Shown here piece after piece: positions 185 to 29,311 of a DNA stretch of 36,764 nt. This DNA comes from Malassezia furfur (lineage: Eukaryota). The stretch lies in the NCBI GenBank assembly GCA_052055015.1, contig JBQJIT010000066.1; one strand, 5' to 3'. Positions within the stretch are counted from its first letter, which is position 1. Each line of letters starts with the position of its first letter. The notes under the pieces were generated by a model, which was not told the origin of the DNA, did not search any database, and saw only the letters and a list, made by a program, of their open reading frames with translations. The translations under genes and the position numbers were made by a program.

Positions 185-1553
185 ATGTGGGACATACACA
201 TGCGCGCGACGCACGCGCTGTCCCCGCCATCGATCCTTGTGTCGCCCCCGGCGGCCGACATCGAGTCGATCCTCGCACACACGCGCCAGGATGGCCATGC
301 GCTGCACCGCCTGCCGATTCGGCACGAGTGGCAGTTTGCCTTTGTGGGTACGCTGCTCGCGCGCGACCAGGCGGCACTCGCCAAGCTCCAGTGGCAGCTC
401 GACCTGGCGTTTGCTGCGCTCGCATGTCCGCCAGCGCATGCCAGCATTCTTGAGCATCGCCCGCGCCTCGCCACACGCCTCGCGCAACAGACGGCGCACG
501 CCGTTGTGCACCTCCTCCGTCGCGCGTGGAAACCCAGCACGCCCGCCGAGTTTGCGTACAGCCCGCCAAGCTTTCGCGAGTCGTCCGCGACACGCGAGCC
601 GCTGGCGCCTGGCGCACTGGGCGCAGTGCACACCGCCTGGGCGCAGCACCTCTCGGGTGTACTCGGTGCCGAGATGGTCGACAAGATCGCCGCACACATT
701 ACCCAGGCTCTGTGGTATATGGCCACGCAGTACGTAGCCGCGCTGATCCCAGGGACCGACAGCGTACGTTTGCACGACCGGCGACCCTCGCCTACTTTTG
801 CGCCTCGTGCGTCGCACAGCTCGATCAGTGGGACTACCAAGAGGCCCGCGAAGGTGCGCGCCTCCTGCCGCATCGGCACACCACCCACGCCGCGTGCACC
901 ACGCCGGTCACAACGGCGACGGCGCTGCGCAACGCACTGGAAGACCAGCTTCGTGTGCGATTCAATGAGACAAGCGCCGCGATTGCCCGGGCTGCACGCT
1001 CCACTCACACGCTCCAGGTGCCCATGGCGAGTCCGGAGCGCGGGCGCACGCACACCACACGACCCAAACGCCCGGTGCTGCGCGACGCGGCGTTGGTCGA
1101 TGCGGCACGCTTCCTGGGTGAGCTGTGCTGCCAGCAGGTGATGGTCGATGCATCGCTCGTCGTCACCTGGCTCGATACGCTGCTCCTTGCGCCGCGCGCA
1201 TGGGTTCATGTGCCGCTGTGTGAGCTGGAAGCGGCGTGCGCGCTCCTTTTGCTCGTTGCTCCGCATTGGGACGCAACATGGCTCCTGGGCGGGTCGCCCG
1301 TTCGACACTGCTCGCTCACGACAATGGCATCACAACCGACGGAAACAAGTGATGTGTCCGAAGTGATGACGCGGTGCGTACAGCGATTGGAAGAGTTGGT
1401 CCAGTCCAGGCTCGTGCCGGAGGTCACGAAAGAATGGGTCAATGTACGTAATGGGCCCAATTAACTCCACAGGGCGTATTGCGTGCCGGACGACGTAGGT
1501 ACACTAAGACCCACCGGGGCCCAGGTGACTCACGACCCCTCCCAACATCCTAG
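185..1553 (+). CDS. Hypothetical protein with C-terminal MIF4G-like (HEAT) domain; introns 730-752 and 1444-1472; both ends uncertain
   Basis: A 23-nt GTACGT..CTGATCCCAG intron joins ORF 8..1141 in frame to ORF 526..1464. The second part has MIF4G-like motifs (LAYFCASCVAQL..LRNALEDQLRVRF..RFLGELCCQQVM..ELEAACALLLLVAPHWD..CVQRLEEL). A second intron GTACGT..TTAACTCCACAG extends the frame to TAG 1551-1553. The start may lie upstream of ATG 185. Confidence 0.55.
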
Positions 1554-1672
1554 CGCGGCCCCTCACACCTTCGTTGCAGGTTCTCAGGCGCCCGCGGCCA
1601 GGCCTCCTCGCTCAGCATTCATGCTATACCCAGGTTATATACACAAGCCGACCTAGCACCTTCAACCAGTTC

Positions 1673-1770
1673 TCCTAGTTAGTACAACGGTTAGTATATG
1701 TCGCTCTCATAAGATCACACTTGATCTGTGAAGCGCCGACAAGACCCGGGTTCGACTCCCGGATTGGGAA
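1673..1770 (+). tRNA. tRNA-Glu (anticodon CTC) with 26-nt intron 1710-1735
   Basis: Acceptor stem TCCTAGT/ATTGGGA; D arm GTAC..GTAT; anticodon stem TGTCG/CGACA with CT-CTC-A (anticodon 1706-1708); intron at the canonical 37/38 position containing an AGATCA/TGATCT hairpin; T arm CCGGG-TTCGACT-CCCGG; oligo-T Pol III terminator just downstream. Confidence 0.93.
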
Positions 1771-1872
1771 CACATTTTTTGCAATTTTTATTTTTTGGAT
1801 CCAAACCCCGCGTCGATCTGGTACGATCGGGGCACGATCGGGTTTGGCGACACTGCGCACGGCACAACGGTC

Positions 1873-3368
1873 ATGTTGGCCTGGTTGACCCGGCTGTTTG
1901 AACGGCTGCATCTCAATCGAAATGGTATCTTTGGAGTTGGCTTTGTGAGTGGACTCGTCGTTGGGCTCGGGTCCCTTGCTTTTGCGAAACTACACAAGGT
2001 CCTCCTCAACACGGTGTGGAACCCGCGTCTTCCGAAGCGCTGGAGTGCGCGGCGTGTGGGGTACGAAGCACCGGAGCACTTTGAGCCTGTGGAACTGCGC
2101 AGGAGCGGTAAAATTGTCGATGGAATCGCCGGGATGATCGGTATGTGCCAATACTCATACAGGGAATACGCCTCTGATGCGCATCAATAGTTTGTCGGAG
2201 CTAACGGGCTGCGAAATTCTGGGCAAGGCCGAATTCCTCAATCCCGGCGGCAGTCCAAAAGACCGCGTCGCCCTCGAAATCATTAAACAAGCGGAAGAGC
2301 GTGGTGAGCTCGTGCCCAATGTCGGCTCATGGATCTTTGAAGGAACCGTCGGGTCTACTGGGATCTCGATCGCGACACTGGCGCGCGCCAAGGGCTACAA
2401 CTGCTGCATCGTACGCATTCTATCTCACACAGATTGTCCCAGACGATGTTGCCGAAGAAAAGGCACAGCTGCTCCGGCGCCTGGGCGCCAAAGTTGAAGC
2501 CGTGCGGCCCCGGGGGATTGTGGATCCGCGCCATGTACGTCGCCTGCTGACACCCCAGTTTGTCAACGAAGCCCGCGCTCGCGCCAAAGCGTGGACACCC
2601 AACGCCTACGAACCGTATGCTCGTGCCTTCTTTGCGGACCAGTTCGAGACTGAGGCCAACTTTTATGCACATTATCACCACACGGGACCGGAAATCTGGG
2701 AGCAGACGAACGGGAACTTGGACGCCTTCGTTTCGGGGGCCGGTACAGGCGGTACGATTGCAGGCGTCGCTGCGTACATCAAGCGCAAAGCAAACGAACA
2801 AGAAAACGGCAAGGATCCACTAGTGATTATCGCCGACCCTCCGGGTTCAGGTGTGTACAACCGGGTCAAGTACGGCGTGCTGTACAACTCGACCGAGGCC
2901 GAAGGGACGCGCCGGCGGCACCAGGTGGACAGCGTCGTGGAGGGCATTGGTCTGAACCGCCTGACGCACAACCTAGAGATGGGCCTCCCTTACATCAACA
3001 ATGCCGTGCGCGTCACGGACGATGAGGCAGTGCGGATGTCGCGCTACATCGCATCGCACGACGGTCTTTTCCTCGGCTCTTCCTCGGCAGTCCACTGTGT
3101 CGCAGCCGTACGTGTCGCATTGCAGCTCAAGGCGGAGCGCCTCGAGGCGTCCGGCAAAGAGGCGGAGCAGACGTCGCCGAACGGAGTCCCCGATCTCCCG
3201 GCGATGCAGACCGAGGACCGCCCGGTGGTCGTCACGGTCCTGTGCGACTCCGGTTCTCGCCACTTGTCCAAATTCCAAAATGACGAGGCCATGGAGAAGC
3301 GCGGTCTGCCCGTATCCGATGACATATCCGATATCCTTGGGGCTAGTATCGCGCCCCACCCTATCTAG
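1873..3368 (+). CDS. Cysteine synthase-like PLP enzyme with N-terminal membrane anchor (yeast YGR012W/MCY1-like); introns 2141-2162, 2411-2432, 2535-2558
   Basis: Splicing restores IGNTPLMRIN, KAEFLNPGGSPKDR (PLP lysine), EGTVGSTGIS, CCIIVPDD, DPRHFVNEAR, GAGTGGT, EGIG and LCDSGSRHLSKF. Hydrophobic N-terminal segment GIFGVGFVSGLVVGLGSLAFA. Confidence 0.9.
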
Positions 3369-4654: not shown

Positions 4655-6681
4655 CTAACACCCGTCTTTGTATTTGTTTTTAGGCCATTGGTTGGTCTGG
4701 CCATCCGTCTTTCCTTGCTCAAACTGAGTCAAGTTGTTGTTCATGTAGAGATCCAGATGACGGTTGATGTAATCGGTCGTAGGGTGGTCTGGCGGATTGC
4801 AGGATTTGCGCGAATCCGGCACGCCGTCGCGCTGATAGACACGCTGAATGAGATTTCATAAACATACCACATAGTCAACCTTCATTGTCGCCGGGAAGCT
4901 GACGCCCTTGGTTTTCCCACCATCCCAGTCTGCGTGAGTAAGATGTAATGCCACATACTGACGTATTGGAAACCACTTGCGATTCCCAAATTGACGATAA
5001 TGCTCATAGGCTCTTCAGAGAAAATGCGTCGTGAAATCATGGCCTTGGAATCAGAGCCCAGCACCCCGGATGTAATCGTCCATGATGGTTTGCCATTGGC
5101 ATAAAAAGTGATGTATCCACTGCCATCACCATCCCAATCAGGCTCGTACTCAACACCCAACACAGTGTACGTCGCATCGTCGCCCGCGTTCTCGAAGGCG
5201 GTATCGTCGATGCGCGTTACAGACGACAGCGCCTCTTGCGTGGTACCACCGGACCACGAATTTGTGCTGGTGATATCCGTATCGTAAATATGGAAGCCGC
5301 TCTTGTTTGACTTCCAATCATAACCATCGTCGAAAGGAGCAACTTGGTACGATTGCGACGCATATGACCCTTTGTTTTGTGTATCGACTTGCAACTCGCA
5401 AATATCGATTTCAGGGGCGGTGCGCGCCACGCCATTGTTCGGACCAGGGTGGTCTTCACCCTTGCACGTGCACGAAGGATAGCGCATGCCGGGCAGTTTC
5501 GACAGCTGTTTACCCTTGTTGCCATGCAGTGCAGCATAAGGACCACGGCCATCCGCGAAAGTTTGGTTCGGCATGACACCCACATCGCACGCATCGTAGA
5601 CATAAGGCCACATACCATCAGCGGACGCCAAGTAGCCTGGACGACCAAGGTTGCCCATCAGCCAGAAGCCAGGCCAGTAACCCTGGGTTTGAGGACCGCC
5701 CGGGAATTGGAAGGAGGCTTCAATGTAGCCGCCCTGGAAACAAAACTTGTTCCAGGACTGAAGCATGCCGGATCGGAAGTACTGACCACGCTCAATTTCT
5801 TCTTCGAGCGTGATCTGAAGCACGCCATTTCCTTTTGCGTCCGTGGTGGTGTTGACGCCTTCGGGTGTGTACCATTCGAAATCGAACGTCGCACCATACC
5901 AAATATTGACGGCCTCCCAGTACGGGTCGTCGCCCTCCCAAAACGTGCGACCCGGCGTGTTAAATTCATCAGAAAAAACAAGGTTATACTTGCTTCCGTC
6001 CTGGTTGCCCGTCCGCGTCCTGCTCTCCTGCGGCGTGTCAGGGTCAATCAAGGGCCGCACGGGGATGGGGTCGACTTTGGCGTTAGATTGGAGCACTGAG
6101 TTGACGTCCACTTTTCCAAAGAGGTGGTCAAAGTGCGCAACGAGGGGGTATCCGAGGAAAAGCATAACGATGGCACACACAATCACCACGAGTGTCAACA
6201 CATTGATGCACCCGCGCCAAGTGGGGTACCTCGCATGAGCATTGGGGTTTTTATCCGGAATGTGCAGGTAGTCATCTGGCTCTGCTTGCATGGGATGCAG
6301 CACGATGGTGCCTTTCCGGGGCATGGCGCTCTGGCGCACACTGTATGGACGCGGGCGTTTCCGCGTCTCGGCATCGGGCGTGAGCGTGCCGTGGGACGTG
6401 GGCGATGCGCTGTTACCTGTCGCAAAGGATTGGTCCGGAATGGTCAGTGTAGGCGTGTTGCGGCTCCGCTGGCGGCTCAACTTCGAGGTCGGGGTCGACG
6501 CCATGGTGCTCGGAGGCACCTGCGGCCGCAGCGGCTCAGGGGAACCTTGAGATGCACCGCGCATATAGGCCCCTCGGTGGCTATTGTACGGCGAGGGCTG
6601 CACGTCGATAGCTAGCTCTTGGTTACGCCGGTCGCGCGAACGCCCGGGCGTTGAGGGCACAGCTCGGTAGTCGCGCACCAT
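4655..6681 (-). CDS. KRE6: Beta-1,6-glucan synthesis-associated protein KRE6/SKN1 (GH16); introns 4930-4958 and 4844-4867
   Basis: Type II TM segment, LVFSDEFN, SGMLQSWNKFCFQGG, WPGFWLMGNLGRPGY, APEIDICE. Splicing two short introns yields FPATMKVDYVRVYQ..CNPPDHPTTDYINRH..WPKNKYKDGC-stop (TAG 4655-4657). Confidence 0.92.
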
Positions 6682-6959
6682 CGCCCCTTGAATACTTGGC
6701 CCTGGCCGTGTTTGTCAAGAAAGCGCGGCGCGCGCTGCAACCCCGGCGACATGTGCCCGGGCAAGCGCTGATTGGCCCCGAGGTGTTGGATCCCGTGAGC
6801 CTTAGCTGACTCAGCAACCGGGGACCCAGACTGCCACACCGCCCTGCGCACGGACGCAGCGCCGAAGCTCGCCCGAAGCGACATGGAGCAACCAAAGGCA
6901 TTCTAGAACTACATTAGGGAAATTGTACATATTCACAACAGGAAGGGAAGGCAGTCGTA

Positions 6960-9078
6960 TCAGATCAAGGCCCCCACGACAGGACCGTCATGGTGAGTCA
7001 AGTGAGGACGCGACAGAGAGCTCGTCAGTTGATCCTCTTCGGTATCCTCTCCATGGGCCACCGACGTCGAGAGATCGGAGATGAGCGACTCATTGGGCGT
7101 CGCGACCGAGTCCATGTCCGAGAACATTTGTGATAGGCCCATACTCATGGATGTCGAAATAGGGGCCAGAGGCACCACACGGTGGGGATCTGTGACAGGG
7201 GTTTCACTCGAGGCTCGCGTATACAAATGCGTTCCTGCGTGGTCCTTGGCACTGGCTTCGAGTGCGGCCGAGTCGGTGAGGTAGCGCCCTTTTCCGCCTT
7301 GGATGAACGACTGCGGTGTACGGAAGTACACCGAGGCTAGGCTGTTTCCTTGCAGCAAAAGCTGGTCGAGAAGTTTGCGGTCCATGCGGTCATTGTGGGT
7401 GTCGACGACGGGGAGGCTGGCAAGAATCACCCTCCGAGCCTTTTCCGCATCTGACGATAGCAGGCGCCAATACATGTAGCCTCGATCGCGGCAGTCGGGG
7501 TGGGTCACATCTTGCGTGGCCCACTTCAGGACCTTGGGCACAAGAGAACTGCCGGCCGTGGGCCGTTTCAAAAATAGTTTCATCGTGGCAGTGAGGAGCG
7601 CCAGTTGGACTTCGACGGGCTCATCCAAGAATGTATAGAGAAAGTCTTCCAGCAGCTCCTCGCTGTTCCCTATCCGGTCGGCGTACTGCCCCAGGATCCA
7701 AATCATGGCCACTTTGGCCTGCGGTTCATTGAGTTCGCCGAGGTGGGTGCATAGTACATGAAGAAGGTCCATGTACTGGTCCGTGTACTTGCGGAACAAA
7801 TCCTTGGCCACGATAATCACCTCCTGAACCACATAGTTGGCACCCGTCTTGCCCAGGTTGGTCAGTGCATCCACGTAGGCGTCGACCGAGCTTTCTAGGC
7901 GCAACGCGATCCGTCCGATGCTGTTCACCGCTTTGCGCGCAAAATCCACGTCGTTGTCGGCCACGTAGTCGCACAGCTCTGGCAATACCTGCATGGCATT
8001 GCCCTCGTTGACCAAGCGGCAAATGATCTCCAATTTGGTCAGCTTGACATAGACGGGGTCTTTGTGTTTTCGGTAAAAAAGCTTCACATCGTGATACAAC
8101 ACCAGCGGCCTCCGCTGGATCACCAGCAGGATGTTCCGCAGACCCACATACTGGATCTGTGGAGGCGCCGACAGCAGTGTGACCAGCGCCGTGCTCATTT
8201 TGCGACAAAGCAGCGCGCGAAATTCCGCACTGGCAATGTAGTTCAGCAGGTACATGATGACCTTGACCGAGGTCAGAATCACCGAGGCACTGGTCTGCTG
8301 TAGTCGAACACTGACTGCCTCCGCAATGATCTCAGCCTGATGGCTCGTGTTCGGCACGTAAAAGAGGAGCATTTCGAGAATGTACGTCTGGCCCCACTCA
8401 GAGCACTGGCCCAAGATCGACACGAGCTTCTCGGCAATGGACACGTTGATCCGCAGCTGAATCTTTTCGCTGCGCTCGACAATGTCGTACAAGGCAACGA
8501 CTGCATTTGAGACCACCTTGACGTTCTCGTCCAAAAGCATGCTTTTCAGTACATCGACGTATCCGTGCGTTTCGATCAATGTTGGGTCAAATGTATGCAT
8601 TTTTGCGATACACATCACCGCCGTTTTCCGCACACTGGCATCCTTGTCATGGATGGCATGGTTTAGGGGCCGTGCGAGTGCGTCAAAAACCAGGGGGCTC
8701 TGCAGATACGACATGGACCGCAGTGCCAAAGCGCGTACTAGCGGGTTGGGATCGATGCAGTCGCGTAAGAAGCCCTTGATGCATAACGGGAGCAGATCCT
8801 TGTTCGAGTTTCCGTAGTTGATAATGTAAAGGTCTGCGTGAGGTGCAATACGTACAAACCATCTTCTTCACGTCAATCGCGGCAATGTCCATGCACTCGA
8901 CCACCTCGGGAAACAGCTCCTGCATATCGTTGCCCATCGTCGCATTGGCAATGATGCGTTTGAGCGTCGCGCGTCTTCGCGCCAAACTCTTTCCTTTCTT
9001 ATCCGCGGTCAGCTCATTACGCAAGTCTTCCACCGTAGAAAACTGGAAGAACTTGTCGTCGTGCCCCACGTCCGCCAT
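6960..9078 (-). CDS. APL1: Adaptor complex beta subunit, most like fungal AP-2 beta; intron 8834-8855; no C-terminal appendage
   Basis: Adaptin_N motifs LKRIIANATMGNDM..LFPEVV..KKMVYLYIINY (restored by a 22-nt intron), ALRSMSYL, VRKTAVMCIAK, DVDFARKAVNSIGRIA, DRGYMYWRLL. The N-terminus DDKFFQ..VEDLRNEL resembles fungal beta-2 more than beta-1 (from memory). Confidence 0.85.
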
Positions 9079-9146
9079 GTTGGTCGGTGCGCGTGGAGGA
9101 GTCTCGCGTTGTATCACGTGGACGAAAAATTTCGCCAGCCGCTACG
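9079..9146. promoter_or_regulatory. 68-bp bidirectional promoter APL1/UTP15 with CACGTG (9115-9120) and RRPE-like GAAAAATTTC (9124-9133)
   Basis: Divergent ATGs at 9078 (-) and 9147 (+). The RRPE-like element precedes a ribosome-biogenesis gene. Confidence 0.6.
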
Positions 9147-10799
9147 ATGGAGTATCAGCCGCTGCGTGCGCCGGCGACGGCTGCGCCTTCGGCTGCGCTG
9201 CAGCAGCCGAACGAATCAATGTACTGGCGGAAACAGTTCCAGTCTCCCATCTTCCTGAAGGAGTTTGCGCCCATCACCTGCATTAGTTTTGTGCCCACGC
9301 CCAGCAACATTGGCGAGGGCGAAGAAGGACCCAGCACCGGCTCGCGCAGCCGCTTTGCCGTAACCACTGGCACGCGCGTCCAGATCTACAGCATGCGCAC
9401 ATCGCGTGTCGTGAAGACGATCACACGGTTCAAGGATGTGGCACGCAGTGCGCATTTCCGCTCGGATGCGCGTCTGTTGGTCGCAGGTGAGGACAACGGC
9501 ACGGTACAGATCTTCGACACCAACTCGCGCACTATTCTGCGTGCATTTTCAGGCCACCAGCTCCCGGTGCATGTGTCAAAATTCTCGCCTAATCCCACGC
9601 AGGTGCTCACTGCGTCGGACGACCGCACCGTGCGAATTTGGGACGTGCCGGGTCAAAGTCAGCTGCGCTCCTTCGAGGGGAGCCAGGACTATGTGCGCGC
9701 CGCGACCGTGTCCCCGGACAACCACAATCTCATCCTTTCTGGATCGTACGACAGCACTGTGCGATTGTGGGATGTGCGCATGGCTGAGCGCGGCGGCGAA
9801 GCGATGCAGATGGACCATGGCGCGCCGGTGGAAGACGTACTGATATACCCCACAGGCGGCGGCGGCATTGCGGTCAGCGCTGGAGGCCCCGTTGTGCGCG
9901 TGTGGGACTTGCTCTCCGGCGGGCGGTGCACGCATGCCATCTCGAACCACCAAAAGACGGTCACCAGTCTGGCGCTTTCGGTGGAGTCCGGCGCCGGGTT
10001 TACCTCGTCGAGCGAGAGCAGCGGCGGCATGCGCCTAATGAGTGGCGGTCTTGACCACCTCGTCAAGGTCTATGACCCTGCCCAGGACTACCGCGTGACG
10101 CATACGATGCGGTACCCTGCGCCGATCCTCAGCCTGGCGGTTGCTCCGGTCGAGAGCCACATCGCCACTGGTATGGCAGACGGCACACTCTGCATCCGCA
10201 AACGCGAGCTCAAGGCGTCGGAGCTGCAGAGCCGTGAGCGTCGGCGCGACGCATTCCGCTCGGGCGCCTACGAACACTTTTTCGATACCAGCGCGGCGCC
10301 GGGCCGTGCGAGTGCGCCGACGGGTGCCGACGAGCTAGCGGCAGAGTCGCGGCGCAAGCAGCGGCTCAAGCGTTACGACCAGCTGCTCAAAGCCTTCCGG
10401 TACCGCGATGCGCTCGATGCGAGTCTGCAGCATGGCGTGCCAGCGAGCGTGACGTTTGCATTGCTCATGGAGCTGATTCGGCGGTCGCCCAGTGGACAGG
10501 CAGACGGTCTTCGGCGCGCGATCTCGGGGCGTGACGACGTCACGCTCGAGCCATTGCTGCGCTTCCTGCTTCGTCATGCGACGAACCCGCAGTATACCAA
10601 TTTGGTGTGCGATACGCTTAACACCGTCATCGACACCTACGCGTCGGTGCTTGGCCAGTCACCCATCATTGACGACCTCTTCGGGCGTATTTGGGCTAAG
10701 CTTGCAGAGGAGATGCGGCTGCAGAACCAGCTTGTGCAGGTCAACGGGGCGCTAGAGATGATCCTCGCACGCTCTGCCCTGGGTGCTGCCTCGACATAG
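9147..10799 (+). CDS. UTP15: U3 snoRNA-associated WD40 protein UTP15
   Basis: FAVTTGTRVQIYS..KTITRFKDVARSAHFRSD, WD repeats, DHGAPVEDVL, NHQKTVTSL, and C-terminal UTP15 domain (YDQLLKAFRYRDALD..ISGRDDVTLEPLLRFL). Confidence 0.92.
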   Translation: MEYQPLRAPATAAPSAALQQPNESMYWRKQFQSPIFLKEFAPITCISFVPTPSNIGEGEEGPSTGSRSRFAVTTGTRVQIYSMRTSRVVKTITRFKDVARSAHFRSDARLLVAGEDNGTVQIFDTNSRTILRAFSGHQLPVHVSKFSPNPTQVLTASDDRTVRIWDVPGQSQLRSFEGSQDYVRAATVSPDNHNLILSGSYDSTVRLWDVRMAERGGEAMQMDHGAPVEDVLIYPTGGGGIAVSAGGPVVRVWDLLSGGRCTHAISNHQKTVTSLALSVESGAGFTSSSESSGGMRLMSGGLDHLVKVYDPAQDYRVTHTMRYPAPILSLAVAPVESHIATGMADGTLCIRKRELKASELQSRERRRDAFRSGAYEHFFDTSAAPGRASAPTGADELAAESRRKQRLKRYDQLLKAFRYRDALDASLQHGVPASVTFALLMELIRRSPSGQADGLRRAISGRDDVTLEPLLRFLLRHATNPQYTNLVCDTLNTVIDTYASVLGQSPIIDDLFGRIWAKLAEEMRLQNQLVQVNGALEMILARSALGAAST

Positions 10800-10881: not shown

Positions 10882-13108
10882 ATGAGCTCAGACGTGCGCG
10901 ACACGGACACACGTCCTACCGCGCGTCGGAGACCAACGTGGCGATGTGACGATGAGCTCACAGTACGTGGAAAATACTTATACAGCCGCGTGCGATTGGT
11001 ATGGGCATCATCGTGGGCGCCCTGATCACCTTCACCAATCTATATCTCGGCCTTCAGTCGGGGTGGATCAGTACGATGACCTTGCAGGGCAGTCTGCTGG
11101 GATTTGCTCTGTTTAAGTTGATCCCTACTTCAATTGAGCTGGGCGGCAGACGATTTGTGATCATGAGCAAGCCGCTCACGCTCAAAGAAAATGTGGTCAT
11201 TCAGACCGTCGCCAGCGCCATCGGCTCTTTGCCGCTCGTGTCAGGCGCCATCGGTGTGCTTCCTGCACTGGCTATACTAGACGAAAAGCAAGACGGCGTG
11301 GGTCCTATGATTTTCTCTCAGACCGGGATTTGGCTCTGGACGTTTGGCCTGGCCTTGTACGTCCTATCTTCTTACGCAGTGCCGGCATCTTCTTCGCAAG
11401 CCCACTGCGCGAGCCCATGATCTTACAGGAACGCCTGCCATTTCCCAGCGGTTCGGCAACGGCGCAGTTGGTTTCTTTACTGCACCGTACACCGCTGAAG
11501 CGTGACCCCGTCGAGACGCAAAATGCACGCGCCGCGGGCGAAGAGGACGTGGCCACCGAAGTCCCTTCACATGCATCGCGACAGGACGTTCAAACAAGCT
11601 GGAATGTCTTGCTCGTATCTCTGGGCGTGTCCTGCTTTGTGACACTCCTTTCGTTTGTGGTCCCTGTGGTGTATGCCTTGCCGGTGTTTGATGTGTTTGC
11701 TCCACGGGGACATTCCCTGACACGCTGGGGATGGTGGTTCACCCCATCGTTTAGCTACATTGGGCAAGGCATGATTATGGGGCTTCCCACGTCCATTCAT
11801 ATGGTGCTCGGCGCCGTTGTCGGCTGGGCAATTCTCTCGCCCATGGCACACGCTTTTGGATGGGCACCGAGCGAGCCGCTGGATGCCGACGAAGGCGGGC
11901 GTGGCTGGATCTTGTGGATCTCACTGGCTGTGATGTGCGCAGAAAGCATTATTGGTGTGGTGGCACTCGTCTTTTCCTCGGGCACCAAAGACTTTTTGGA
12001 CTGGGGCAAAAGCACCGAACACCGCATCGCGCTGCCTTCTCACGAGCACGAGGGGCTTTTGCCAAACAGAGCAGACCGACTTGCGCCGCCGGCAAGTTCT
12101 TCAGGGAGGGCGGAAGACTCACTCTCGGAAATTACGCTTCCAGATGAGGACGATGAGCCACCAGAACGGCAGACGCCCATCAATTATGTCGTCGGTGGAC
12201 TGATCATTTCCAGTGTTGTGGGCGTGTTGTCGGTCGCAGGCGCCGCGGGCACGTCCATCGCCCCATGGGCGACGCTGCTGGCCTTCATTCTTGCCAGCCT
12301 CTTTTCCGTGTTGGCCGTCCGCGCACTGGGTGAGACTGATTTGAATCCGGTGAGCGGTGTCGCAAAGATCAGCCAGCTGCTGTACGGTGTGGTACAGCCC
12401 GGCAATGTGGTCGCGAACCTGATTGCCGGCGCGATCACTGAGTCTGGAGCTATGCAGGCTGGCGAGCTGATGCAGGACTACAAGACAGGCCATCTGGTTG
12501 GCGTCGCACCCTGGAACCAGTTCCGTGGCCAGCTGCTGGGGAGCCTGCTGGGCATTGGCTTTACCGTCTTTGGTTATACCCTGTATCGCTCGACCTACCC
12601 GATCCCTGGACCCCAATTTCCCGCACCCACTTCGGCCATTTGGCTAAACCTCGCGCGGCTGATCAACAATGGTACTCTGCCAGAGACCGTGCCGTCATTT
12701 ATGCTGCTCTTCGGCGTTATCTTCGGCGTTACGGGGATTCTGCATGCCGTTGCACGTTCCCGTCACTTACGCCGCTTGCGCTCCAAGCGGCGCCGAAACG
12801 AGCCGGTGCCTATGTGGGAGCAATGTGCACTTGCGTTCCCGAGTGGCATTGCATTCGCAACTGGGATGATGAACACGCCCAACTTTTCGCTTGCACGGCT
12901 GCTGGGCGGCCTTTCGGCTGCTGCGTATACGCGCTACGCGCAGCGCTACAACACGCAACAGGACCTCAAAACCCTTCTGGTGATTGTGGTGGCCTCTGGA
13001 TTTGTACTGGGCGAGGGCTTTGCCAGTATCGCAGGACTGGTCCTGACTAATAGCGACGTGCCTGTGCTGTGCTACGGGTGCCGATATGGCTGCGGAGGCG
13101 GCTGCTAA
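10882..13108 (+). CDS. OPT superfamily transporter (YSL/YGL114W-like); introns 10963-10985 and 11357-11379
   Basis: Splicing gives ELTPRAIGMGIIVG..NLYLGLQSGW..ENVVIQT..LAFAGIFFASPLR..LPFPSGSATA..GETDLNPVSGVAKISQL..AGELMQDYKTGHL..ASGFVLGEG; many TM helices; Cys-rich C-terminus CYGCRYGCGGGC. Confidence 0.9.
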
Positions 13109-17462: not shown

Positions 17463-17597
17463 ATACGGGGATGTATATGATATCACTGCGCCACGCATGC
17501 CTCGGCGCCCCCGAAAGACACTCTACATAGTTGCAATACGTTTTGTGTCGCGCACCGTACCGTCGCCCCTGCCCACCTCCCGCCTCCACATTGGGAC

Positions 17598-19571
17598 ATG
17601 GGCGAGGCGCCCCGCCCCACACATCGCGTCTGGGTTGAGCCCGAGGTGTGTGCGCATCCCACGGCGTATGCCAAGGACAACATCGAGGGTCATCTCGAGC
17701 TCGTCTCTACCGCGCACCCTGCCGACGCCGCATCAACTGCGCTCCGCTTTCACGTTGACGCACCGCGCGACGCGCGCACGCCGGCCTTCCACGCGGCACT
17801 CATGCGCCTGCGCTCGCTGCGCCTCGGTGCCCCATCACCCCTACGCACGTATGGCTCCGTGACGCTGCGCACAAACGACGACACGCCGCCTGTCACGCTC
17901 TTCTTCCACCACGATACCCACACGGAGGTCACGCGCACCTGGGGCGGCCAGCGCCTGCTGGATGCGCTCCGTCTGTACGTCGATGTCGTCGCGAGCCGCC
18001 AGGATCCGGGCCTTTATCTCGTGGAACCTGACAGCGAGCTACGTGCTGTACATACAGCGCCCGTGTTTTCCGACGACGCGCTCGACAAGCGCCCGACGCA
18101 GACGAACCCCGAAAGCTTCTCGCAGTGGGCACATCTGACCCGCATCTCGGTTCTTGCGCAGTTCTCGCACGTCACACGCGGTGCACGCCAGTCGCGCGAC
18201 GCTATCTGGCAAAATCCGCTGGTGCGCCGTGCTCTGCCGCAGAAGCCGAGTGCTACGCAGTCGAATGCACAAGCAGGGCCCTACATGGTGAGCGCCCAGG
18301 CGGCGCCGCCGGAGCGCGAAGAGTTTGATGCCGCGCGTGTCTATCTCGCCAAGTGGGCCCAGTCAGTCGCCAGCGAAGGCGAGCGCAACCAGATCGCCGA
18401 GGACGTCGACGTAGAGTCACTGCTGGGCACGACGCCGATCCCCTCAGGACAAGACGGAGGTAACCTCCGCTCGGCACCCGCCATCACGACCAAGGCATGG
18501 ACTTCGCTGCTGGACGGCGGCGCAGACGCCACCACTTTGGCGCAGCACATCTTCCATCGTGGCATCGCACCTGAGACGCGCAAAGAGGTATGGCCGTACC
18601 TCCTCGGCGTGCTGCAGCCGGCGTCCGAATGTATGAGCCGCGCAGCGCAATGGAATACGCACCACCGCATCTACGACGAGCTCGCTTCGGAATGGAAGCA
18701 GCCTGGCGTCGAGCTGCCCAAGGACGTCGAGACGTCTAAGCATCGTATCTGGATCGACTGCCTGCGCACCGATACCAAGCACCCGCTTTTTGCTGAGGAG
18801 CAAGGCGCAGACGAAGCCTTTCATGCCATGCAGGCCAGCGGGTGGGACCGACAGCCCCACCAGGGCAGCGATGCTGAGCGCGTGAACCACCATTTTTACG
18901 CGCTCAGCGACGTGCTCCTCACCTTTTGCTTGTACGCAGAACGCGATGAACAACTTGCCAAATTGCATGGCTACGTCCAGGGCATGAGCGATCTCTGTGT
19001 GGTGTGCTACGTGGCATGCGAAGGCGACCTAGTGCGCACGTTCTGGTGTCTTGTTGGTGTGATGCGTCAGATGGGGGCCAACTTCGTCCATGACCAGACC
19101 GGCATGCGGAATGAGCTGCTGATCCTGCAGCGCCTGCTTGCCGAGCTGTGTCCGAAACTGTATGCCTTCCTACATGCCATCGACGGGCTCAACCTCTTCT
19201 TCTGCTTCCGCTGGGTCCTCGTGTGCTTCAAGCGCGAGTTTCCGCTGTCGGACGTGCTCCGGTTGTGGGACGCAATTTATGCCGCGAGTTGGAGCACGCC
19301 CGACGATAAACTCGACTCCCCACAGTGGCCGTTGTGCTACCACTTTGAGCTGTTTATCGCATTGGCCATCCTCGAAAGCCACGCCGACGTGATTGTGCGG
19401 CACCTGCGTACTTTTGACGAGGTGCTGCAGTACGTCCACTCACTCGCCTATCAAATGGACGTCCATGCCATCCTCCGGCGTGCCGAAGCGCTCGTGTTCC
19501 GCCTGCGTGGGCGCACCGAGCACCCACACACCCAACTAGAAGCCAGCTTGAAGGAGCTTGTGCTACGCTAA
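17598..19571 (+). CDS. GYP7: Rab GTPase-activating protein with TBC domain, GYP7/TBC1D15-like
   Basis: HPTAYAKDNIEG, LFFH, EFDAARVYLAKWA, IFHRGI..RKEVWPYLLG, IWIDCLRTD (Arg finger), GYVQGMSDL (Gln finger), LFFCFRWVLVCFKREF. Confidence 0.9.
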   Translation: MGEAPRPTHRVWVEPEVCAHPTAYAKDNIEGHLELVSTAHPADAASTALRFHVDAPRDARTPAFHAALMRLRSLRLGAPSPLRTYGSVTLRTNDDTPPVTLFFHHDTHTEVTRTWGGQRLLDALRLYVDVVASRQDPGLYLVEPDSELRAVHTAPVFSDDALDKRPTQTNPESFSQWAHLTRISVLAQFSHVTRGARQSRDAIWQNPLVRRALPQKPSATQSNAQAGPYMVSAQAAPPEREEFDAARVYLAKWAQSVASEGERNQIAEDVDVESLLGTTPIPSGQDGGNLRSAPAITTKAWTSLLDGGADATTLAQHIFHRGIAPETRKEVWPYLLGVLQPASECMSRAAQWNTHHRIYDELASEWKQPGVELPKDVETSKHRIWIDCLRTDTKHPLFAEEQGADEAFHAMQASGWDRQPHQGSDAERVNHHFYALSDVLLTFCLYAERDEQLAKLHGYVQGMSDLCVVCYVACEGDLVRTFWCLVGVMRQMGANFVHDQTGMRNELLILQRLLAELCPKLYAFLHAIDGLNLFFCFRWVLVCFKREFPLSDVLRLWDAIYAASWSTPDDKLDSPQWPLCYHFELFIALAILESHADVIVRHLRTFDEVLQYVHSLAYQMDVHAILRRAEALVFRLRGRTEHPHTQLEASLKELVLR

Positions 19572-19580
19572 TATACATTG

Positions 19581-20371
19581 CTACGCCAACTCGGCATCGA
19601 CCACATACCGGTCGCCTACGTTCTCCACAGGGTATTTTTGGGGGGTATACCGGCGCCGATGCCACGAGCGCACGAGGCGCTGCGCCTCAGCAGTCGACTC
19701 GAGCCGCACCAAAAACCAGGCATCTGAGCCGGTCGCGTGCCTGTGTGAGCGGTGCAAGATGACGTACAAGCCGGGGAGTTTGAGCACACTGTTGGGGGCC
19801 CGCAGGACACCGAGTTCCAACAGTTCCGATGGCAAGCGAACCGCCTCGTCGTTGCGCGCAAAGGGCACAAGGTCGTCGAGCACCAGCGGTGTTGGAGTGC
19901 CCATCTCGCCCACGAGTGCATAGTTCCGCCGCAGCTTCTTTTCGAGCTTTTCGGCGGTGGTTTGCAGCGGCAGGTTGCGCAGCAGCACACACCGCATCGG
20001 CTCGGCGGTCAGGACGTCGAGTGCCGCGTAGAGTGCATGCGGTCTGCCCTCGTAGTGTGTGCGCAACGTTTCACGCGCCTTGTCAAGGGAGAGCTGTGTG
20101 AATGATCGGGACCTACCTCGCTAGCGGCGATCTCGCGCCCGCCGGTGCGCTTGGCATTCACGCGATGAGCGGCCCACGCTGGAGGGCGATCGCTGGGTAG
20201 TGTTACAATCGCCGCGCCGGACGGCTGGAGAAGCGGGGTGCGGAGGACATCGATGCGGACCTCGGCAGACCCCCCTCCAAGCCGCCAAATATCTTGGGGT
20301 AGGGCTGTCCGGGGAAGATTGCGTAACAGTACGCACGGTTTCATGCTTCGTCCGTGCCGCGCCGGCCCCAT
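19581..20371 (-). CDS. Hypothetical protein with two RRM-like repeats; intron 20094-20116; start at 20371 or 20344
   Basis: A 23-nt intron GTAGGT..TTCACACAG joins ORF 20009..20371 to ORF 19581..20066. Both halves contain CVLLRNLP (RNP2-like); the second has FLVRLESTAEAQRLVRSWH. Confidence 0.65.
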
Positions 20372-20563
20372 CTCACGAACTAGGGCTTAAATTTGATGTC
20401 GGCGTTGTTCGGCGCTAGTAAGAGGACCAATAAGATTTTTGCCAATGCGCGAAGCCAACACGCGAAGGCCATAGTGGCGCGACTTTTTTTTATTTGCTGA
20501 TTCTGGCCCGCCTAGACATCTTTGGGGAGGTGCAAGGTCCAGTCTTACTCCCTCACCACGACG

Positions 20564-22120
20564 ATGATCGCTCCTGTTCTGCGCGCTGCCGTGCGCAGCG
20601 AAGTGCGCCCCCTTGTGCGCAACTTCACGAGCTGCCGCCCTGTTTTCAACACGACGAGCCACTCCAAGGTGGTTTCTTCGGTGGAGGAAGCCATCAAGGA
20701 CATCAAGTCGGGCCAGACCATCATGGTGGGTGGTTTCGGGCTGTGTGGCACCCCCGAGACGCTCATCACGGCGCTTTCGAAGCGCCCGGACGTCAAGGAC
20801 CTCCATGTTGTGTCGAACAACATGGGTGTCCCCGGCGGTGGTCTGGGCCTCCTCGCTGAGGCCGAAAAGGTCAAGATCGCCATCGGCTCGTATGTCGGCG
20901 GGAACAAGTCGTTCAGCGACCAGTTCATCCGCGGCGACGTCTCGGTGCACCTGATTCCTCAGGGCACGCTTGCCGAGAAGATCCGCGCGGGTGGTGCTGG
21001 TGTCCCGGCGTTCTACACGGCCACGGGTGTCAACACCGCCGTCGAGACCGGCGAGCTGATCATGCAATACAAGAAGCAGACGCCCGAGGAAAAGGAGAAG
21101 GGTGCGCCGCTCGAGGTGGTCCGCTACTCGAAGCCGCTCGAGACGCGCGAGTTCGACGGGCGCAAGTACGTCCTCGAGAAGGCGATCAACGCCGACTTCG
21201 CGCTGATCCACGCGTGGAAGGTCGACGAGGCCGGCAACGCCATTTTCCGCCGCACTGCGCGCAACTACAACGACGTCATGGCGCGCAACGCCAAGGTGAC
21301 CATTATCGAGGCCGAGGAGATCGTGCCCGTTGGTGAAATTGACCCCGACCACGTCCACCTCCCCTCGGTGTTCACCAACCGCATTGTCAAGGCGGAGCTG
21401 CCGCTCCAGACCGAGTTTGTGCGCCTGTCGAAGCCCGATGCGGACAGTGGCAAGCCCAAGACGCCGTCGAGCTCGCGTGACGTGATTGCCTCGCGTGCCG
21501 CCAAGGAGCTGAGCAACGGCATGTACGTCAACCTCGGTATCGGTATGCCCGGCCTGGTGCCGAGCTGGCTGCCCGAGGGCGTCAACGTCATGCTCCACGC
21601 CGAGAACGGTCTGCTCGGTATCGGCCCGTACCCCTCGAAGGAGGAGGACGTCGACCCCGACCTGATCAACGCTGGCAAGGAGTCGATCACCTTCGTGCCC
21701 GGTGCCACGTCGTTCGACTCGAGCGACAGCTTCGGCATTGTGCGTGGCGGCCACCTCGACGTGACGATGCTCGGTGCGCTGCAGGTGACCTGCGACGGTG
21801 ACCTGGCCAACTTCATGATTCCGGGCAAGTTTGTCAAGGGCATGGGCGGTGCCATGGACCTCGTGTCGAACCCCGACCAGACGCGCGTGATTGTCCTGAC
21901 GGAGCACGTGGACAAGTACGGCCGCCCCAAGGTGGTCGACAAGACTTCGCTGCCGCTCACTGGCAAGCGCTGCGTCGACCTGATCATTACCGACCTTGCC
22001 GTGTTTGACGTGAACCGCAAGGACGGCGGCATGACCCTCATTGAGCTTGCGCCTGGCGTGACCGAGGAGGAGGTCCGCGAGAAGACCGGCGCGCCCTACA
22101 AGGTCGCGCTCAAGCAGTAG
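20564..22120 (+). CDS. Mitochondrial succinyl-CoA:3-ketoacid CoA transferase (SCOT/OXCT1), fused alpha/beta
   Basis: Arg-rich presequence, [44 protein letters not shown] (catalytic Glu), [17 protein letters not shown]; strongly biased codon usage. Confidence 0.95.
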
Positions 22121-22178
22121 ATAGCGATACGCAATTCAAACCACAATCCATTTTATTGACCATTGCTCTCTAGGAATG

Positions 22179-24437: not shown

Positions 24438-25754
24438 ATGGTGAAGTACGTATGCGCGTGTAGGGTGCGCTAACCACAGAGAGACAAAGGTATGCATGCG
24501 TTTGCGCGTTTGTCTCGCTAACACGGCAGCTATATGAATTGCTTGGCGTCGATCCCTCGGTTTCCGACTCCGAGTTGAAGAAGTAGGTGGCACACGACTG
24601 ACGCCAGGGCATACCGCAAAAAGGCGCTGGCCTTGCACCCCGACAAGGGTGGTGACCCCGAGCTGTTCAAGGAGGTCACGGCAGCATACGAGGCACTTTC
24701 TGACCCGGACAAGCGTGAGATGTATGACCGTTTCGGTATGGACGGCCTGAGCGAAAGCGGTGGCATGGGTGGCGGCATGGACCCCCAGGACCTCTTTTCG
24801 CAGCTGTTCGGTGGCGGCGGTGGCTTCTTCGGCGGCGGTGGCCGCCCCAAGGGCCCGCGGAAGGGCAAGGACCTGATCCACCGCGTCAAGGTCACGCTCG
24901 AGGACCTGTACAAGGGCAAGATCACCAAGCTTGCGCTTCAGAAGCACGTGCTGTGCTCCTCGTGTGAGGGCCGTGGCGGCAAGGAGGGCTCGGTGAAGAC
25001 ATGCGACACCTGTAAGGGTCAGGGTGTCAAGGTCGTTCTCCGCCAGCTCGGTCCGATGGTGCAACAGATGCAACAGCCATGCCCCGACTGTGATGGCACC
25101 GGTGAGCGCATCGCTCCCCAGGACCGCTGCAAGGCCTGCAGCGGCAAGAAGGTTACCCAGGAGCGCAAAGTGCTCGAGGTCCGCATCGACAAGGGTATGC
25201 AGGACGGCCAGCAGATCACCTTCAAGGAAGAGGCCGACCAGGCGCCCAACACGATTCCGGGCGATGTCATCATTATTGTGGACGAGCAGCCGCACCCGCG
25301 CTTCAAGCGCAAGGTCAATGACCTGTTTGTGGACGTCAAGGTGGATCTCCTTACCGCGCTGGCCGGTGGTAAGGTGAGCATCGAGCATCTCGACGACCAC
25401 GCGCTTTCGGTCGAGATCCCGGCGGGCGATATCATCAAGCCGGGTGACATGAAGGTGCTTCGCGGTCAGGGTATGCCTTCGTACCGCCACCATGAGCCGG
25501 GCGACCTGTACGTGAACCTGTCGGTGGAGTTCCCCGAGTCGCTCTCGGAGGAGCAGATGGGTCTCCTCGAAAAGGCACTTCCGCCCCGCAAGCGTCCGGC
25601 CAACTTGCCGAACAATGTCGACGTCGAGGACGTCATCATGGACAACATCGACGACAGGGAGGCCCACCGCGCGCGGACTGGCCCTTCCAACACCATGGAT
25701 ATGGAGGACGACGAGGCTGGCGGCGGCCCGCAGGTGCAGTGTGCCCAGGGCTAA
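24438..25754 (+). CDS. YDJ1: Type I Hsp40 co-chaperone Ydj1/Mas5; introns 24446-24479, 24490-24529, 24583-24607
   Basis: Splicing gives [31 protein letters not shown] region; four CxxCxGxG-type zinc motifs; C-terminal CaaX-like CAQG. Confidence 0.95.
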
Positions 25755-25835
25755 ACCGCTTGTACATGATCGATTTCAGCGTGGATGATTGTAGTCATAT
25801 ATTCCTAGGCAGCTGTCGTTGTCTGCGCCATCCTA

Positions 25836-26820
25836 CTAAACGTTACTCTCGAGCTCGGCCTTCTTCGCCTCAGCTTCGGCCAGGCGTCGATCTAGGTCCT
25901 CTAGCTCGTTTGCTTGCGACTCAACCGACGCTTGACTGTGTGTCAGTGCAGCAACGTACATCTGCTTCACTCGCTCCTCGATCGAGGCCAAGCCGCTCTC
26001 CGTTTCCGTACCCCCGACCGACAGCGAGGTGCCCGAGTTGGAAAGTTCCGGAAGCGTCGGCGCCGAGTTGGCAGGGTACACACCCTTGCCGTCAGCCGCC
26101 GTGTCCAGATCCGCGTCCGTACGCCCGCCGGCAGCGATGTCTGCGACGTGGAACAAGACAGGGTCGTTGCTGTTGACCTGGTCTGGCACGAACTGGAACA
26201 GACGGACTTCGGCATTCGTCCACGGGTACTCTTCCTGAATCACGCGCCGCAAGATGTCACCGTGCGCAACCAGCACAATGTGTTCCTCTGGGCGCTCGAG
26301 CAGGTATTGCCGAATCCACTTGGCACGTGCGTTGAGCGAGTCATGGTCGGCGGCTGTGTGAGCGAGCCGACGTACCGTAAAAGCCCTGCTTGCTCGTCCA
26401 TTCCGGTGTCAGGTTGGACAGGTTGAAGCGGGCAAACTCGGGGTGCGCTTCCAACACCTCGCGCGCCGAACCAGTGTCGCACGGCAGTGCGTTGCATTCT
26501 GGGATGAGTACAAGTACCTACCTTGCAGCTGAGGCAGGCAAACCACCTCCGCGTGTCCACCTAGGCGGTCCACGGCATCTGCATAGCCGAGAGACACCGT
26601 CTGTAGCGTCCGGCGCAGGGGCGAACTGAGAATTACCTGCGCCGTCTGTTGCAGCTCCGGGGTGAGCCCAGGGAGCCGTGCGGCTTGGCGCTTGCCAAGA
26701 TCCGTCAGAGGTGCGTCAGGAATCGAATAGTCATCTTCGACGTTCTGAATTAGTGGCAATCATACGTACGTGCTCTGCCTGAGCATGCCGGGTCAAATAA
26801 ATGCGACTTGTGGGGGCCAT
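25836..26820 (-). CDS. Histidine phosphatase (phosphoglycerate mutase-like) protein with C-terminal coiled coil; introns 26745-26769, 26499-26521, 26354-26375 and probably 25936-25959
   Basis: Spliced: MAPTSRIYLTRHAQAEHNVEDDYSIPDAPLTDLG..SSPLRRTLQT..LQECNALPCDTGS..WTSKQGFYAAD..IVLVAHGDILR. Confidence 0.88.
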
Positions 26821-26895
26821 GGTTGGTATGTGTGGGCAATGCGCACGGTTTCGCGAAGCTTGTCACGTGCATCGTCTACGCCTTTGTCTACGATC
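26821..26895. promoter_or_regulatory. 75-bp bidirectional promoter (phosphatase/MRPL38) with CACGTG at 26864-26869
   Basis: Divergent ATGs at 26820 and 26896; TCACGTG lies between them. Confidence 0.55.
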
Positions 26896-27369
26896 ATGCT
26901 GGGACTCAAGTCAACGATGTCGGTACGTATGCCTTTGTCTCATCAAGATTATCGACAACTCGGGCGGCCTGGTTGCTGAGTGTATCAATGTGCTGCGCTA
27001 CAAGTCCTCCAAGGGACTGGGTCGGGTCGGTACGTTGGCTTTCTTGCGTTCTTCTTTCTGACACTTGCAGGTGACGAAGTCGTGGTCGTGGTCCAAAAGG
27101 CGCGTCCTATTCCTACCAACCAGATCCCCGGTAGCTCGGCAAATGCGCTCAAGGTGCGCCGCGGAGACGTGCGCCACGCTGTAATCGTGCGCACCAAGAA
27201 AGAGGCGCAGCGTCCGGATGGGCGCGTCGTCAAGTTCGACGACAATGCGTGCGTTCTGCTCAACAATCGGAAAGAGCCACTGGGCACCCGTGTGAACGGC
27301 GTGGTCTCGAGCGAGCTCCGTGAGCGTGGGTGGGGCAAGATTCTCAGCCTCGCGCCAAAAGTCGTTTAG
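26896..27369 (+). CDS. MRPL38: Mitochondrial ribosomal protein uL14m (yeast MRPL38); introns 26923-26947 and 27030-27070
   Basis: Spliced: [83 protein letters not shown]. Confidence 0.92.
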
Positions 27370-27385
27370 CCATTATACCGTAACT

Positions 27386-29311
27386 CTATGGCTTTGCTTT
27401 CTCCTGCTCCTTCATTTCTTGTGCACGCCGCGCGATCTCCTCAGGCGCCAGGCTGCGGTGCTGCTTTTTGCGGTGCCCCTTGGCTGCTGTACCGGGGCCC
27501 CAATTCGCTTGCGGGTTCATCTGGTACCGGACGGCGTGCTTCTCCGAGGGTGCGCCGTGGAGAATGGCCTCGGTGCGCTCGTTCGGCGTCTCGTAGTCAA
27601 ATGCACGCCGTGTTGCGGGCGTGCCGTCCTCATTGCGCCGTGCGAGCAGGCCTTGGGCTGCCGATCCTTCTTTGAGGCGTTCAGGGTTGACAGGGTGCTC
27701 CTTGATCCAGGAGCGGAAAAGATCGTACACCTCACCGCGCGACGCATTCGTCTTGATGGAGCCCGCTACGCAGTGCGACCGGGAAACGTCAAACCCAGCA
27801 TTCAGGAGGGCATGTCTGCGTTAGGATAGGTATACGTACACAACGGGTGCAAGCGGCGGCGAGGTGCAATGGAAAAGACCGGCCACCTTGGCGGGGTGGA
27901 AGTAAAACGGTGCATCCAATTCCTGTGTCAGCGGTTGCGTACGTACGTCACGCGCAGTGGAGACCATGCCGCGAATACGCGGCTCGGTACCGAACGTGTG
28001 CTTGCCGGAATCGAGCGTCTCCAGAATCTCGTCGCAGAACTCCGCGTCTTGAATCGCGCCGAACCACATTGGACCACCCACATGGAAGGAACCCCCACAC
28101 TCGCCGCAACGCATGTCGGTGGGTGGACCCGGAGCCGAGCCAAACTTGATATTCGGCACACCCGTCTTGACGTTGGGCGTCGACGTTGCGCGGCCCATCG
28201 GCTGAATATGGAAATCGCTGCACTTTCCACAAGAGTACACCAAACCGGTCTTTGATGCATTCAGCTTAACCGTCTCAGGCCGTGTCCACACGCGCACAAA
28301 CACGCGAAGGTAGAAGTCGATCGAAAGCGAGAGCATTGGCTGGATATAGCGCCCATACCGACCTGCCGCCGTGGCGATCGCGTGCAAAACGAGACGAAGT
28401 GCAACTTCATGCGAGTATTCAGCTTTGACACTGACACCGCCGTACAGCGACCAGCATTTTTCGGGGTAGTTGTGGCCCGCCAGCACAGCCAGGTCCGTGC
28501 ACGTAACACACAGCAGACCACCGTCAGCGACCGATTGCACAGCAGCGTCCAAAAATGGCGCTGCGGTGCCATAAGGGTCCAGATCGACCACGTCAAAGCG
28601 CTTCGACGGGTCGCGGTGCTCGTACATCAGCGCGATAGCGTCGCCCTGGTTGACATGCACTTTACAGTCGGGGTGAATTTGGATATCATCGGTACTAGGA
28701 GCCTCTTTCGCTCCCTGCGGCTCTTTAGTGACTGCCTCGCCTTCATTGGCGGTCTGCAGCTCAGCGACTTCTTCGAGTGGTCGTCCCGGCGGGAAATTGA
28801 GTGCGAGATTTCGGCGCATGGCCTGCACTGCACTGTGCGAGAGATCGTTGGCGAGGATCGAGCCAAGCAGCGGGATTTCCTTAGCGTAACGAATGCTGCG
28901 CAGACCCGTTGCGCTCAGCGCCTCGAGAATGGTGAATTTGTACGAGCGGTACTCCTCATCGACTTTGACGCGCTTGTTTTCCGGCTCACCGCGCTTGGCA
29001 CGCTTAGCATTGCGCGTTTCCACATGCGCCATGTACCTTTGCTTCTTCTCGCGATCAAGGATCTGGCTCCAGGCGATAATGGCCAACGTGCTAAGGTCGC
29101 GATTGAACTCCTGCACCGGATTCAGGAATGCGGCTTCCTTCGAGGGCATGACAATCGTCGCGCTGTTTTCGCGAAATGCGGATTCATTGCTCTTAATATG
29201 AATACCTCGTTTTGCGACCGCATCAGCGCTCAACAAAATCGGCTCGGGTGCCATGATGCGCAGTGTCCTCGTCCAAGCAACGAGTCGTATGCCGCCAGAC
29301 GCACCAGGCAT
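27386..29311 (-). CDS. TRM1: tRNA (guanine26-N2,N2)-dimethyltransferase; in-frame ATGs at 29311 and 29254; introns 27923-27946 and 27816-27839
   Basis: FLNPVQEFNRDLS, ILEALSATGLRSIRYAKE, DVVDLDPYG, GGLLCVTCTD, SIDFYLRVFV, CxxC motifs. After splicing: HALLNAGFDVSRSHC..IKTNA..YQMNPQANWGP. Confidence 0.93.

Follow-up and report, generated by a model that had tools for sequence, protein, structure and literature searches.

The stretch of DNA analysed here, a window of 36,764 nucleotides (nt) with a G+C content of 61.6%, raises the question of whether segments as short as 22-25 nt that interrupt its protein genes are spliceosomal introns, and of what would set the minimum length of such introns. 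A first-pass annotation, made from the letters alone, had counted 26 introns in the window and listed 18 segments in this size class. We reached the same total, and the 18 segments proved exact in coordinates and in length (five each of 22, 23 and 24 nt and three of 25 nt), each lying on the strand of the gene that it interrupts. GT..AG signals, motif enrichment, colinearity with homologous proteins and the contigs of a relative all identify them as spliceosomal introns, and we conclude that the segments are introns with the signal anatomy described below. Judged from the sequence, they are very probably ordinary U2-type GT-AG introns in nuclear genes of the Malassezia furfur group, shortened to little but their splice signals. 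The assignment of the DNA to Malassezia likewise held: the closest named proteins come from M. furfur (P0003, 97% identity at 88% query coverage; P0253, 92%), followed by M. brasiliensis proteins with 93% and 90% identity, which identifies the window as nuclear DNA from a yeast of the M. furfur group.

With 18 of the 26 introns, the 22-25 nt class dominates the window, as had been claimed. The others measure 27, 29, 32, 34, 38, 40, 41 and 270 nt, and 20 of the 26 are no longer than 29 nt, i.e. most fall below 30 nt. The median length is 24 nt and the mean 35.8 nt, or 26.4 nt if the 270-nt intron of RPS21 is left out.

All 26 introns share a compact set of signals. Each begins with GT[A/G]NG[T/C], in 17 cases GTACGT, and each ends in AG, which is part of CAG in 25 introns and of AAG in one. 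A branch motif CTNAY is present in 25 introns and TTCAC in the remaining one, placed by motif at 5-9 nt from the intron end. The branch A stands 5 nt from the end in 16 of the 26 introns, among them 13 of the 18 short ones, so that branch and 3' splice site are fused as one block, CTNAY-N-CAG; over the whole set, the combined element consists of CTNAY, 1-4 nt and CAG, and the free spacer between the 5' splice site and this element amounts to about 7-10 nt. In the short introns the branch A occupies position 16-20, and the five introns of 22 nt have 7 nt between the 5' hexamer and the branch pentamer and a single nucleotide between the pentamer and CAG. None of the 26 introns contains a polypyrimidine tract or the U12-type 5' splice site [A/G]TATCCTT, and the exon bases adjoining the 5' splice sites follow no consensus. 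The G+C content of the short introns averages 50%, compared with 61.6% for the window. A branch box nearly touching the 3' AG and the lack of a pyrimidine tract are also characteristic of yeasts of the Yarrowia lipolytica type, the introns of which are, however, much longer overall.

The combination of these signals is far more frequent than expected by chance. We defined a strict motif (GT[AG]NG[TC], followed by a CTNAY whose A lies 4-9 nt ahead of the end and by YAG, 18-26 nt in total) and counted it on both strands of the window and in 200 dinucleotide-preserving shuffles. The window contains 20 matches against a mean of 2.35 in the shuffles (standard deviation 1.5, maximum 8), an enrichment of about 8-fold. 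The motif fits 16 of the 18 listed introns, while the other two deviate at one element each, namely the branch motif (TTCAC in 20094-20116) and the 3' end (AAG in 26923-26947). Four further matches comprise two nested alternatives within real introns and two without support, the latter being the number expected by chance: 6795-6814 (+ strand, 20 nt) is intergenic and 9278-9298 (- strand, 21 nt) lies antisense within the UTP15 coding region, neither with coding support. Two other candidates, 1675-1720 and 25458-25484, were rejected because they lack coding support.

Removal of the introns yields reading frames that remain open to a stop codon in all 12 spliced gene models, including the histidine-phosphatase model in its revised form. 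For protein comparison, flanking exons were searched separately and the continuity of the matches over the junction was checked; in the case of the cysteine synthase gene, spliced models were aligned to retrieved homologues. Independent support, from protein colinearity or from the DNA of a relative, exists for every one of the 18 listed introns (Table 1). Several profile matches reflect the intron positions directly. In the beta-adaptin gene one residue is skipped at the 8834-8855 junction because the codon is split by the intron, and the exon starts at position 20 of the DnaJ profile and position 10 of the L14 profile are predicted by the short upstream exons. In the SKN1/KRE6-like gene, the Pfam SKN1_KRE6_Sbg1 match breaks off at position 430 in the upstream exon and is taken up again at 447 in the last exon; the exon that separates the two measures 62 nt. 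The insert at 2535-2558 occurs, among 20 homologues, only in the unspliced open reading frame (ORF) calls P0001 (8 residues) and P0004 (7 residues). Homologues of solved structure for 2535-2558 and 27923-27946 are bacterial or archaeal and too distant to be informative, and these two sites are settled by orthologues and by a related contig.

Table 1. Introns of the window and one micro-exon, with the evidence for each. L001 and L002 are related contigs (see text); paired profile or chain numbers give the positions on the two sides of the junction.
Position	Strand	Length (nt)	Gene and feature	Evidence
730-752	+	23	gene 5'-truncated by the window, no Pfam family	GTACGT..CTGAT..CAG; 7 of 9 spanning representatives gap-free when spliced
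2141-2162	+	22	cysteine synthase 2-like (PALP), intron 1	15 of 16 spanning homologues gap-free
2411-2432	+	22	cysteine synthase 2-like, intron 2	Pfam PALP 83/85 over the exons; 16 of 18 gap-free
2535-2558	+	24	cysteine synthase 2-like, intron 3	multiple of 3, no in-frame stop; 18 of 20 homologues without its 8 residues
4844-4867	-	24	SKN1/KRE6-like, intron 2	in-frame stop inside; ORF open to its stop only after removal
4930-4958	-	29	SKN1/KRE6-like, intron 1	same profile and ORF evidence as 4844-4867
8834-8855	-	22	AP complex beta-adaptin	Pfam Adaptin_N 62/64; solved chains 6uri_B 93/95 and 2jkr_B 69/71
10963-10985	+	23	OPT oligopeptide transporter, intron 1	12 of 12 spanning homologues gap-free
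11357-11379	+	23	OPT oligopeptide transporter, intron 2	Pfam OPT 116..119; 15 of 15 homologues gap-free
13246-13267	-	22	ATX1-like copper chaperone, intron 2	exons match yeast Atx1 (1cc7_A) residues 5-30, then 33-72
13353-13384	-	32	ATX1-like copper chaperone, intron 1, after two codons	splice signals; spliced ORF of 72 residues from ATG
13566-13603	+	38	RPS21, intron 1	downstream exon from Pfam Ribosomal_S21e position 6, agreeing with five upstream codons
13821-14090	+	270	RPS21, intron 2, sole long intron of the window	GTACGT...CTAAC...CAG; spliced protein of 88 residues, S21e-length
19741-19767	-	27	gene without Pfam family	multiple of 3, no stop; L001 orthologue one continuous ORF minus exactly these 9 residues
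20094-20116	-	23	same gene as 19741-19767	L001 single frame through the site; spacing 72 nt, against 95 nt in the window
24446-24479	+	34	YDJ1-like DnaJ, intron 1	38 nt in L001, signals kept; ATG start only when spliced
24480-24489	+	10	DnaJ gene, micro-exon between two introns	frame from ATG into the J domain needs it
24490-24529	+	40	DnaJ gene, intron 2	38 nt in L001
24583-24607	+	25	DnaJ gene, intron 3	exact 25-nt gap at the borders in L001 and L002; next exon from Pfam DnaJ position 20
25936-25959	-	24	histidine phosphatase-family, intron 4	multiple of 3, no stop; 25 nt in L001; 4 of 5 Malassezia homologues without insert
26354-26375	-	22	histidine phosphatase-family, intron 3	27 nt in L001; 7 of 10 homologues gap-free
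26499-26521	-	23	histidine phosphatase-family, intron 2	26 nt in L001; 6 of 10 gap-free, including all five non-Malassezia
26745-26769	-	25	histidine phosphatase-family, intron 1	24 nt in L001; 9 of 10 homologues gap-free
26923-26947	+	25	mitochondrial ribosomal protein L14, intron 1	next exon from Pfam Ribosomal_L14 position 10 after nine upstream codons; 25 nt in L001
27030-27070	+	41	L14 gene, intron 2	41-nt gap in L001 and L002; Pfam Ribosomal_L14 37/37
27816-27839	-	24	TRM1 tRNA methyltransferase, intron 2	25 nt in L001; Pfam TRM 339..344
27923-27946	-	24	TRM1, intron 1	multiple of 3, no stop; 24-nt gap in L001 and L002

DNA-level evidence comes from two metagenome contigs, L001 (21.3 kb) and L002 (11.6 kb), which were retrieved with the large TRM1 exon as query. 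The two have 99.6% identity with one another, share about 74% protein identity with the window and are syntenic with its 19.4-35.6 kb part, so that the comparison covers 15 window introns. Five of these (19741-19767, 20094-20116, 24583-24607, 27030-27070 and 27923-27946) are absent from the relative at the exact intron borders, and the gap equals the intron length for 24583-24607 (25 nt), 27030-27070 (41 nt) and 27923-27946 (24 nt). The other ten are present at the same sites in L001 with conserved signals and diverged interiors; at the 26923-26947 site, for example, L001 has 25 nt with a diverged interior and CAG at the 3' end, compared with AAG in the window. Eight L001 lengths were measured (Table 1), and in five cases the difference to the window length is not a multiple of 3, a change that would not be tolerable for coding sequence. 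For the same reason the 25-nt equivalent of 25936-25959 must be spliced in L001. Among the 18 listed introns, three are exactly absent in the relative and four show a non-multiple-of-3 length difference. The 10-nt micro-exon of the DnaJ gene is kept in L001 and L002 with two substitutions.

The first-pass annotation had further proposed a hard floor of 22 nt, and this stands for the window, in which nothing shorter has support, but not for the genus. At the site of 2535-2558, the M. obtusa-like ORF call P0004, which is unspliced, carries exactly 7 residues (21 nt) more than the annotated M. obtusa protein P0007, between flanks that do not differ, which implies a 21-nt intron in the M. obtusa-like genome. 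We infer that two separate limits fit the data better than a single one: a branch A at position 16 or beyond, and a distance of at least 5 nt between it and the intron end. Limits of 16 nt and 5 nt would allow introns of 21 nt. In 2535-2558 the branch A already stands at position 16, yet 8 nt follow it. Any such floor would be a property of the machinery of this lineage and not a universal one, given that Stentor splices introns of 15-16 nt.

The ordinary U2-type reading would work as follows. Recognition would take place across the intron (intron definition), which is favoured by the DnaJ micro-exon, since 10 nt cannot be defined as an exon. Removal would follow the normal two-step lariat pathway, the 3' splice site would be picked by its nearness to the branch and not by a pyrimidine tract, and the minimum length would result from the two limits, one of about 16 nt for the stretch between the 5' end and the branch A (the lariat loop) and one of about 5 nt for the distance between the branch A and the 3' end. 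Several points weigh against this account. Splicing of each single intron is deduced from comparison of DNA and proteins, the branch points were assigned by motif, and the two-limit model rests on 26 window introns, ten motif matches in L001 and one deduced 21-nt case. In addition, 2535-2558, 19741-19767, 25936-25959 and 27923-27946 have a length that is a multiple of 3 and no in-frame stop, and their partial retention could leave the protein intact.

A reading that is compatible with ordinary U2-type introns and goes beyond them holds that the spliceosome itself has been miniaturised or rewired, such that U1 and U2 would not fit together on a 22-nt intron and early assembly would be sequential or would proceed without U2AF/Mud2-like factors. 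The spacing within the 22-nt introns (7 nt from hexamer to pentamer, 1 nt to CAG) and their lack of a pyrimidine tract agree with it, and a comparable steric argument, in which the lariat loop measures about 10 nt, is made for Stentor in the accessible text of PMC9505925. According to the same text, however, Stentor keeps all small nuclear RNAs (snRNAs) and most spliceosomal proteins despite its introns of 15-16 nt, and tiny introns thus need no reduced spliceosome; moreover, introns of 29-41 nt and one of 270 nt are found in the same genes. We treat a changed spliceosome as a tentative and rather unlikely extension. In its fullest form, which we would sooner expect to fail than to hold, the proposal would be that M. 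furfur introns have been trimmed to the limits of the spliceosome (about 16 + 5 nt), that CTNAY-N-CAG acts as one 9-nt element, that U1 and U2 cannot occupy an intron at the same time, that assembly differs from the textbook A complex and involves no U2AF-type recognition of a pyrimidine tract, and that the introns turn over fast. If this were true, Malassezia would provide a fungal model, accessible to genetics, for the splicing of minimal introns; the genus is transformable, as reported in PMC5654937, and hence usable to test what sets the minimum intron size.

It is also conceivable, though improbable, that some of 2535-2558, 19741-19767, 25936-25959 and 27923-27946 are facultative, with retention adding 8-9 residues in frame and giving a second isoform. 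Reading through these four introns meets no stop, and in relatives such segments are translated in automated ORF calls and in the NCBI model P0256. On the other hand, the extra residues never occur in orthologues outside Malassezia, and in the relative the equivalent of 25936-25959 has 25 nt while 27923-27946 and 19741-19767 are absent, which means that the inserted residues are not conserved as protein. The four belong to six multiple-of-3 introns of the window; since they lack an in-frame stop, their retention would escape nonsense-mediated decay. Six introns are too small a sample to judge whether multiples of 3 are depleted as in Paramecium.

Assembly indels or pseudogene lesions can practically be dismissed as the source of the frame changes: we found no evidence for them, and they are contradicted by the full splice signals at every segment, by the enrichment of the motif over the shuffles and by independent contigs of a related organism, in which the introns either recur at these positions or are missing precisely from GT to AG.

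Ordinary U2-type introns of this size are in keeping with what is published for the genus. In M. sympodialis ATCC 42132, 5,350 introns were annotated that average 30 bp, and 99% of them had support from RNA sequencing (RNA-seq), as given in the available part of PMC5389616; for M. restricta KCTC 27527, the accessible text of PMC9241646 gives 37.2 as the mean and 30 as the median. Very short introns in Malassezia genes are also noted in a review (PMC7426719), while PMC8476143 treats M. sympodialis only as intron-poor. The window means of 35.8 and 26.4 nt bracket the published 30 bp, and the median of 24 nt, although somewhat below the published 30 and derived from 26 introns only, is near it, which makes the window a typical and not an extreme case within the genus. 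Short introns have been published for Malassezia before, and the suggestion that the novelty would lie in the degree of shortening is not supported as stated. In their accessible portions, the papers on M. sympodialis and M. restricta provide summary numbers and do not cover signal anatomy, minimum length or branch-to-3' distance. Our literature search found no paper on Malassezia splice signals or minimum intron size, or on the genus as an ultrashort-intron lineage, a provisional result with subscription journals outside its coverage. The biology is thus known at the level of genome statistics, to which our analysis adds the fused CTNAY-N-CAG element, the two length floors and the 21-nt case in a relative.

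Introns of comparable or smaller size are best known from ciliates, with an average of 25 nt in Paramecium tetraurelia (reported in PMC8997360) and 15-16 nt in Stentor coeruleus (PMC9505925, in its accessible text). As in the window, these are GT-AG introns, they are handled by a largely conserved spliceosome, and the steric problem of the lariat loop arises for them too. Ciliates are unrelated to Malassezia, however, and nearly all of their introns are tiny, whereas introns of 22-25 nt stand beside others of 29-41 and 270 nt here; the 5' consensus GTACGT and the yeast-like CTNAY branch box also set the window apart from them. A 2026 paper names ciliates, Microsporidia, Dicyemida and Myxozoa as lineages with introns below 30 bp, and its accessible text makes no mention of Malassezia (PMC13644364). 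Microsporidian splicing is described there as inefficient, in contrast to the RNA-seq support for 99% of M. sympodialis introns (PMC5389616, as far as accessible).

Public Malassezia gene models are often wrong at introns of this size. The M. furfur cysteine synthase model P0003, the sole exception to gap-free alignment at 2141-2162, lacks 11 conserved residues there and another 21, in each case beside a 22-nt intron. All four NCBI Malassezia models of the histidine phosphatase (P0253-P0256) have lost residues beside a 23-nt intron that are conserved in other fungi, and P0256 also translates a 27-nt intron. P0121 is without 21 residues after the 730-752 junction, and P0136 without 8 residues shortly upstream of the 11357 junction. 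The affected models are orthologues of the window genes at 1873-3368, 25830-26820, 1-1464 and 10882-13108, and they look like annotation errors caused by minimum-intron-length settings. Gene finders for Malassezia have to be run with the minimum intron length set to about 20 nt or lower; the accessible text of PMC6473144 states that a setting of 15-20 was required for the annotation of M. restricta. P0002, P0016 and P0020 are likewise among the models that skip conserved residues or read through sites of 22-27 nt introns. A further homologue of the gene at 1-1464, P0123, has an 8-residue insert exactly at the position of 730-752, which may be the translated 24-nt intron of another species.

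Tiny introns turn over quickly between the two Malassezia species compared here: 5 of 15 occur in the window only and at least one, a 27-nt intron (L001 13364-13390), occurs in the relative only and has no counterpart in the window. The 5' part of the DnaJ gene (24438-24530) is divided into an 8-nt coding exon, a 34-nt intron, the 10-nt micro-exon and a 40-nt intron.

RPS21 combines a first intron of 38 nt with the 270-nt intron, which has a perfect TACTAAC-like branch box. For the first intron, 13566-13603 was preferred to a nested candidate of 23 nt (13581-13603) that would add five residues, and a 30-nt candidate at 14061-14090 turned out to be the 3' end of the 270-nt intron. An Rfam scan of the 270-nt intron matched no family and no known small nucleolar RNA, so any RNA hosted there is not a described one.

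By our reading of ORFs, Pfam matches and homology, the window contains about 21 densely arranged protein genes; a transfer RNA scan and an Rfam scan of the window gave no matches and revealed no snRNA gene in it. The genes for beta-adaptin (- strand) and UTP15 (+ strand) are divergent with start codons 68 nt apart (window 9076-9149), and their promoters and 5' untranslated regions must therefore overlap. The gene for succinyl-CoA:3-ketoacid CoA-transferase is present in one copy in the window (20516-22120) and in two tandem copies in the relative, at 17099-18262 and 18824-20239 of L001 and at 7337-8500 and 9062-10477 of L002.

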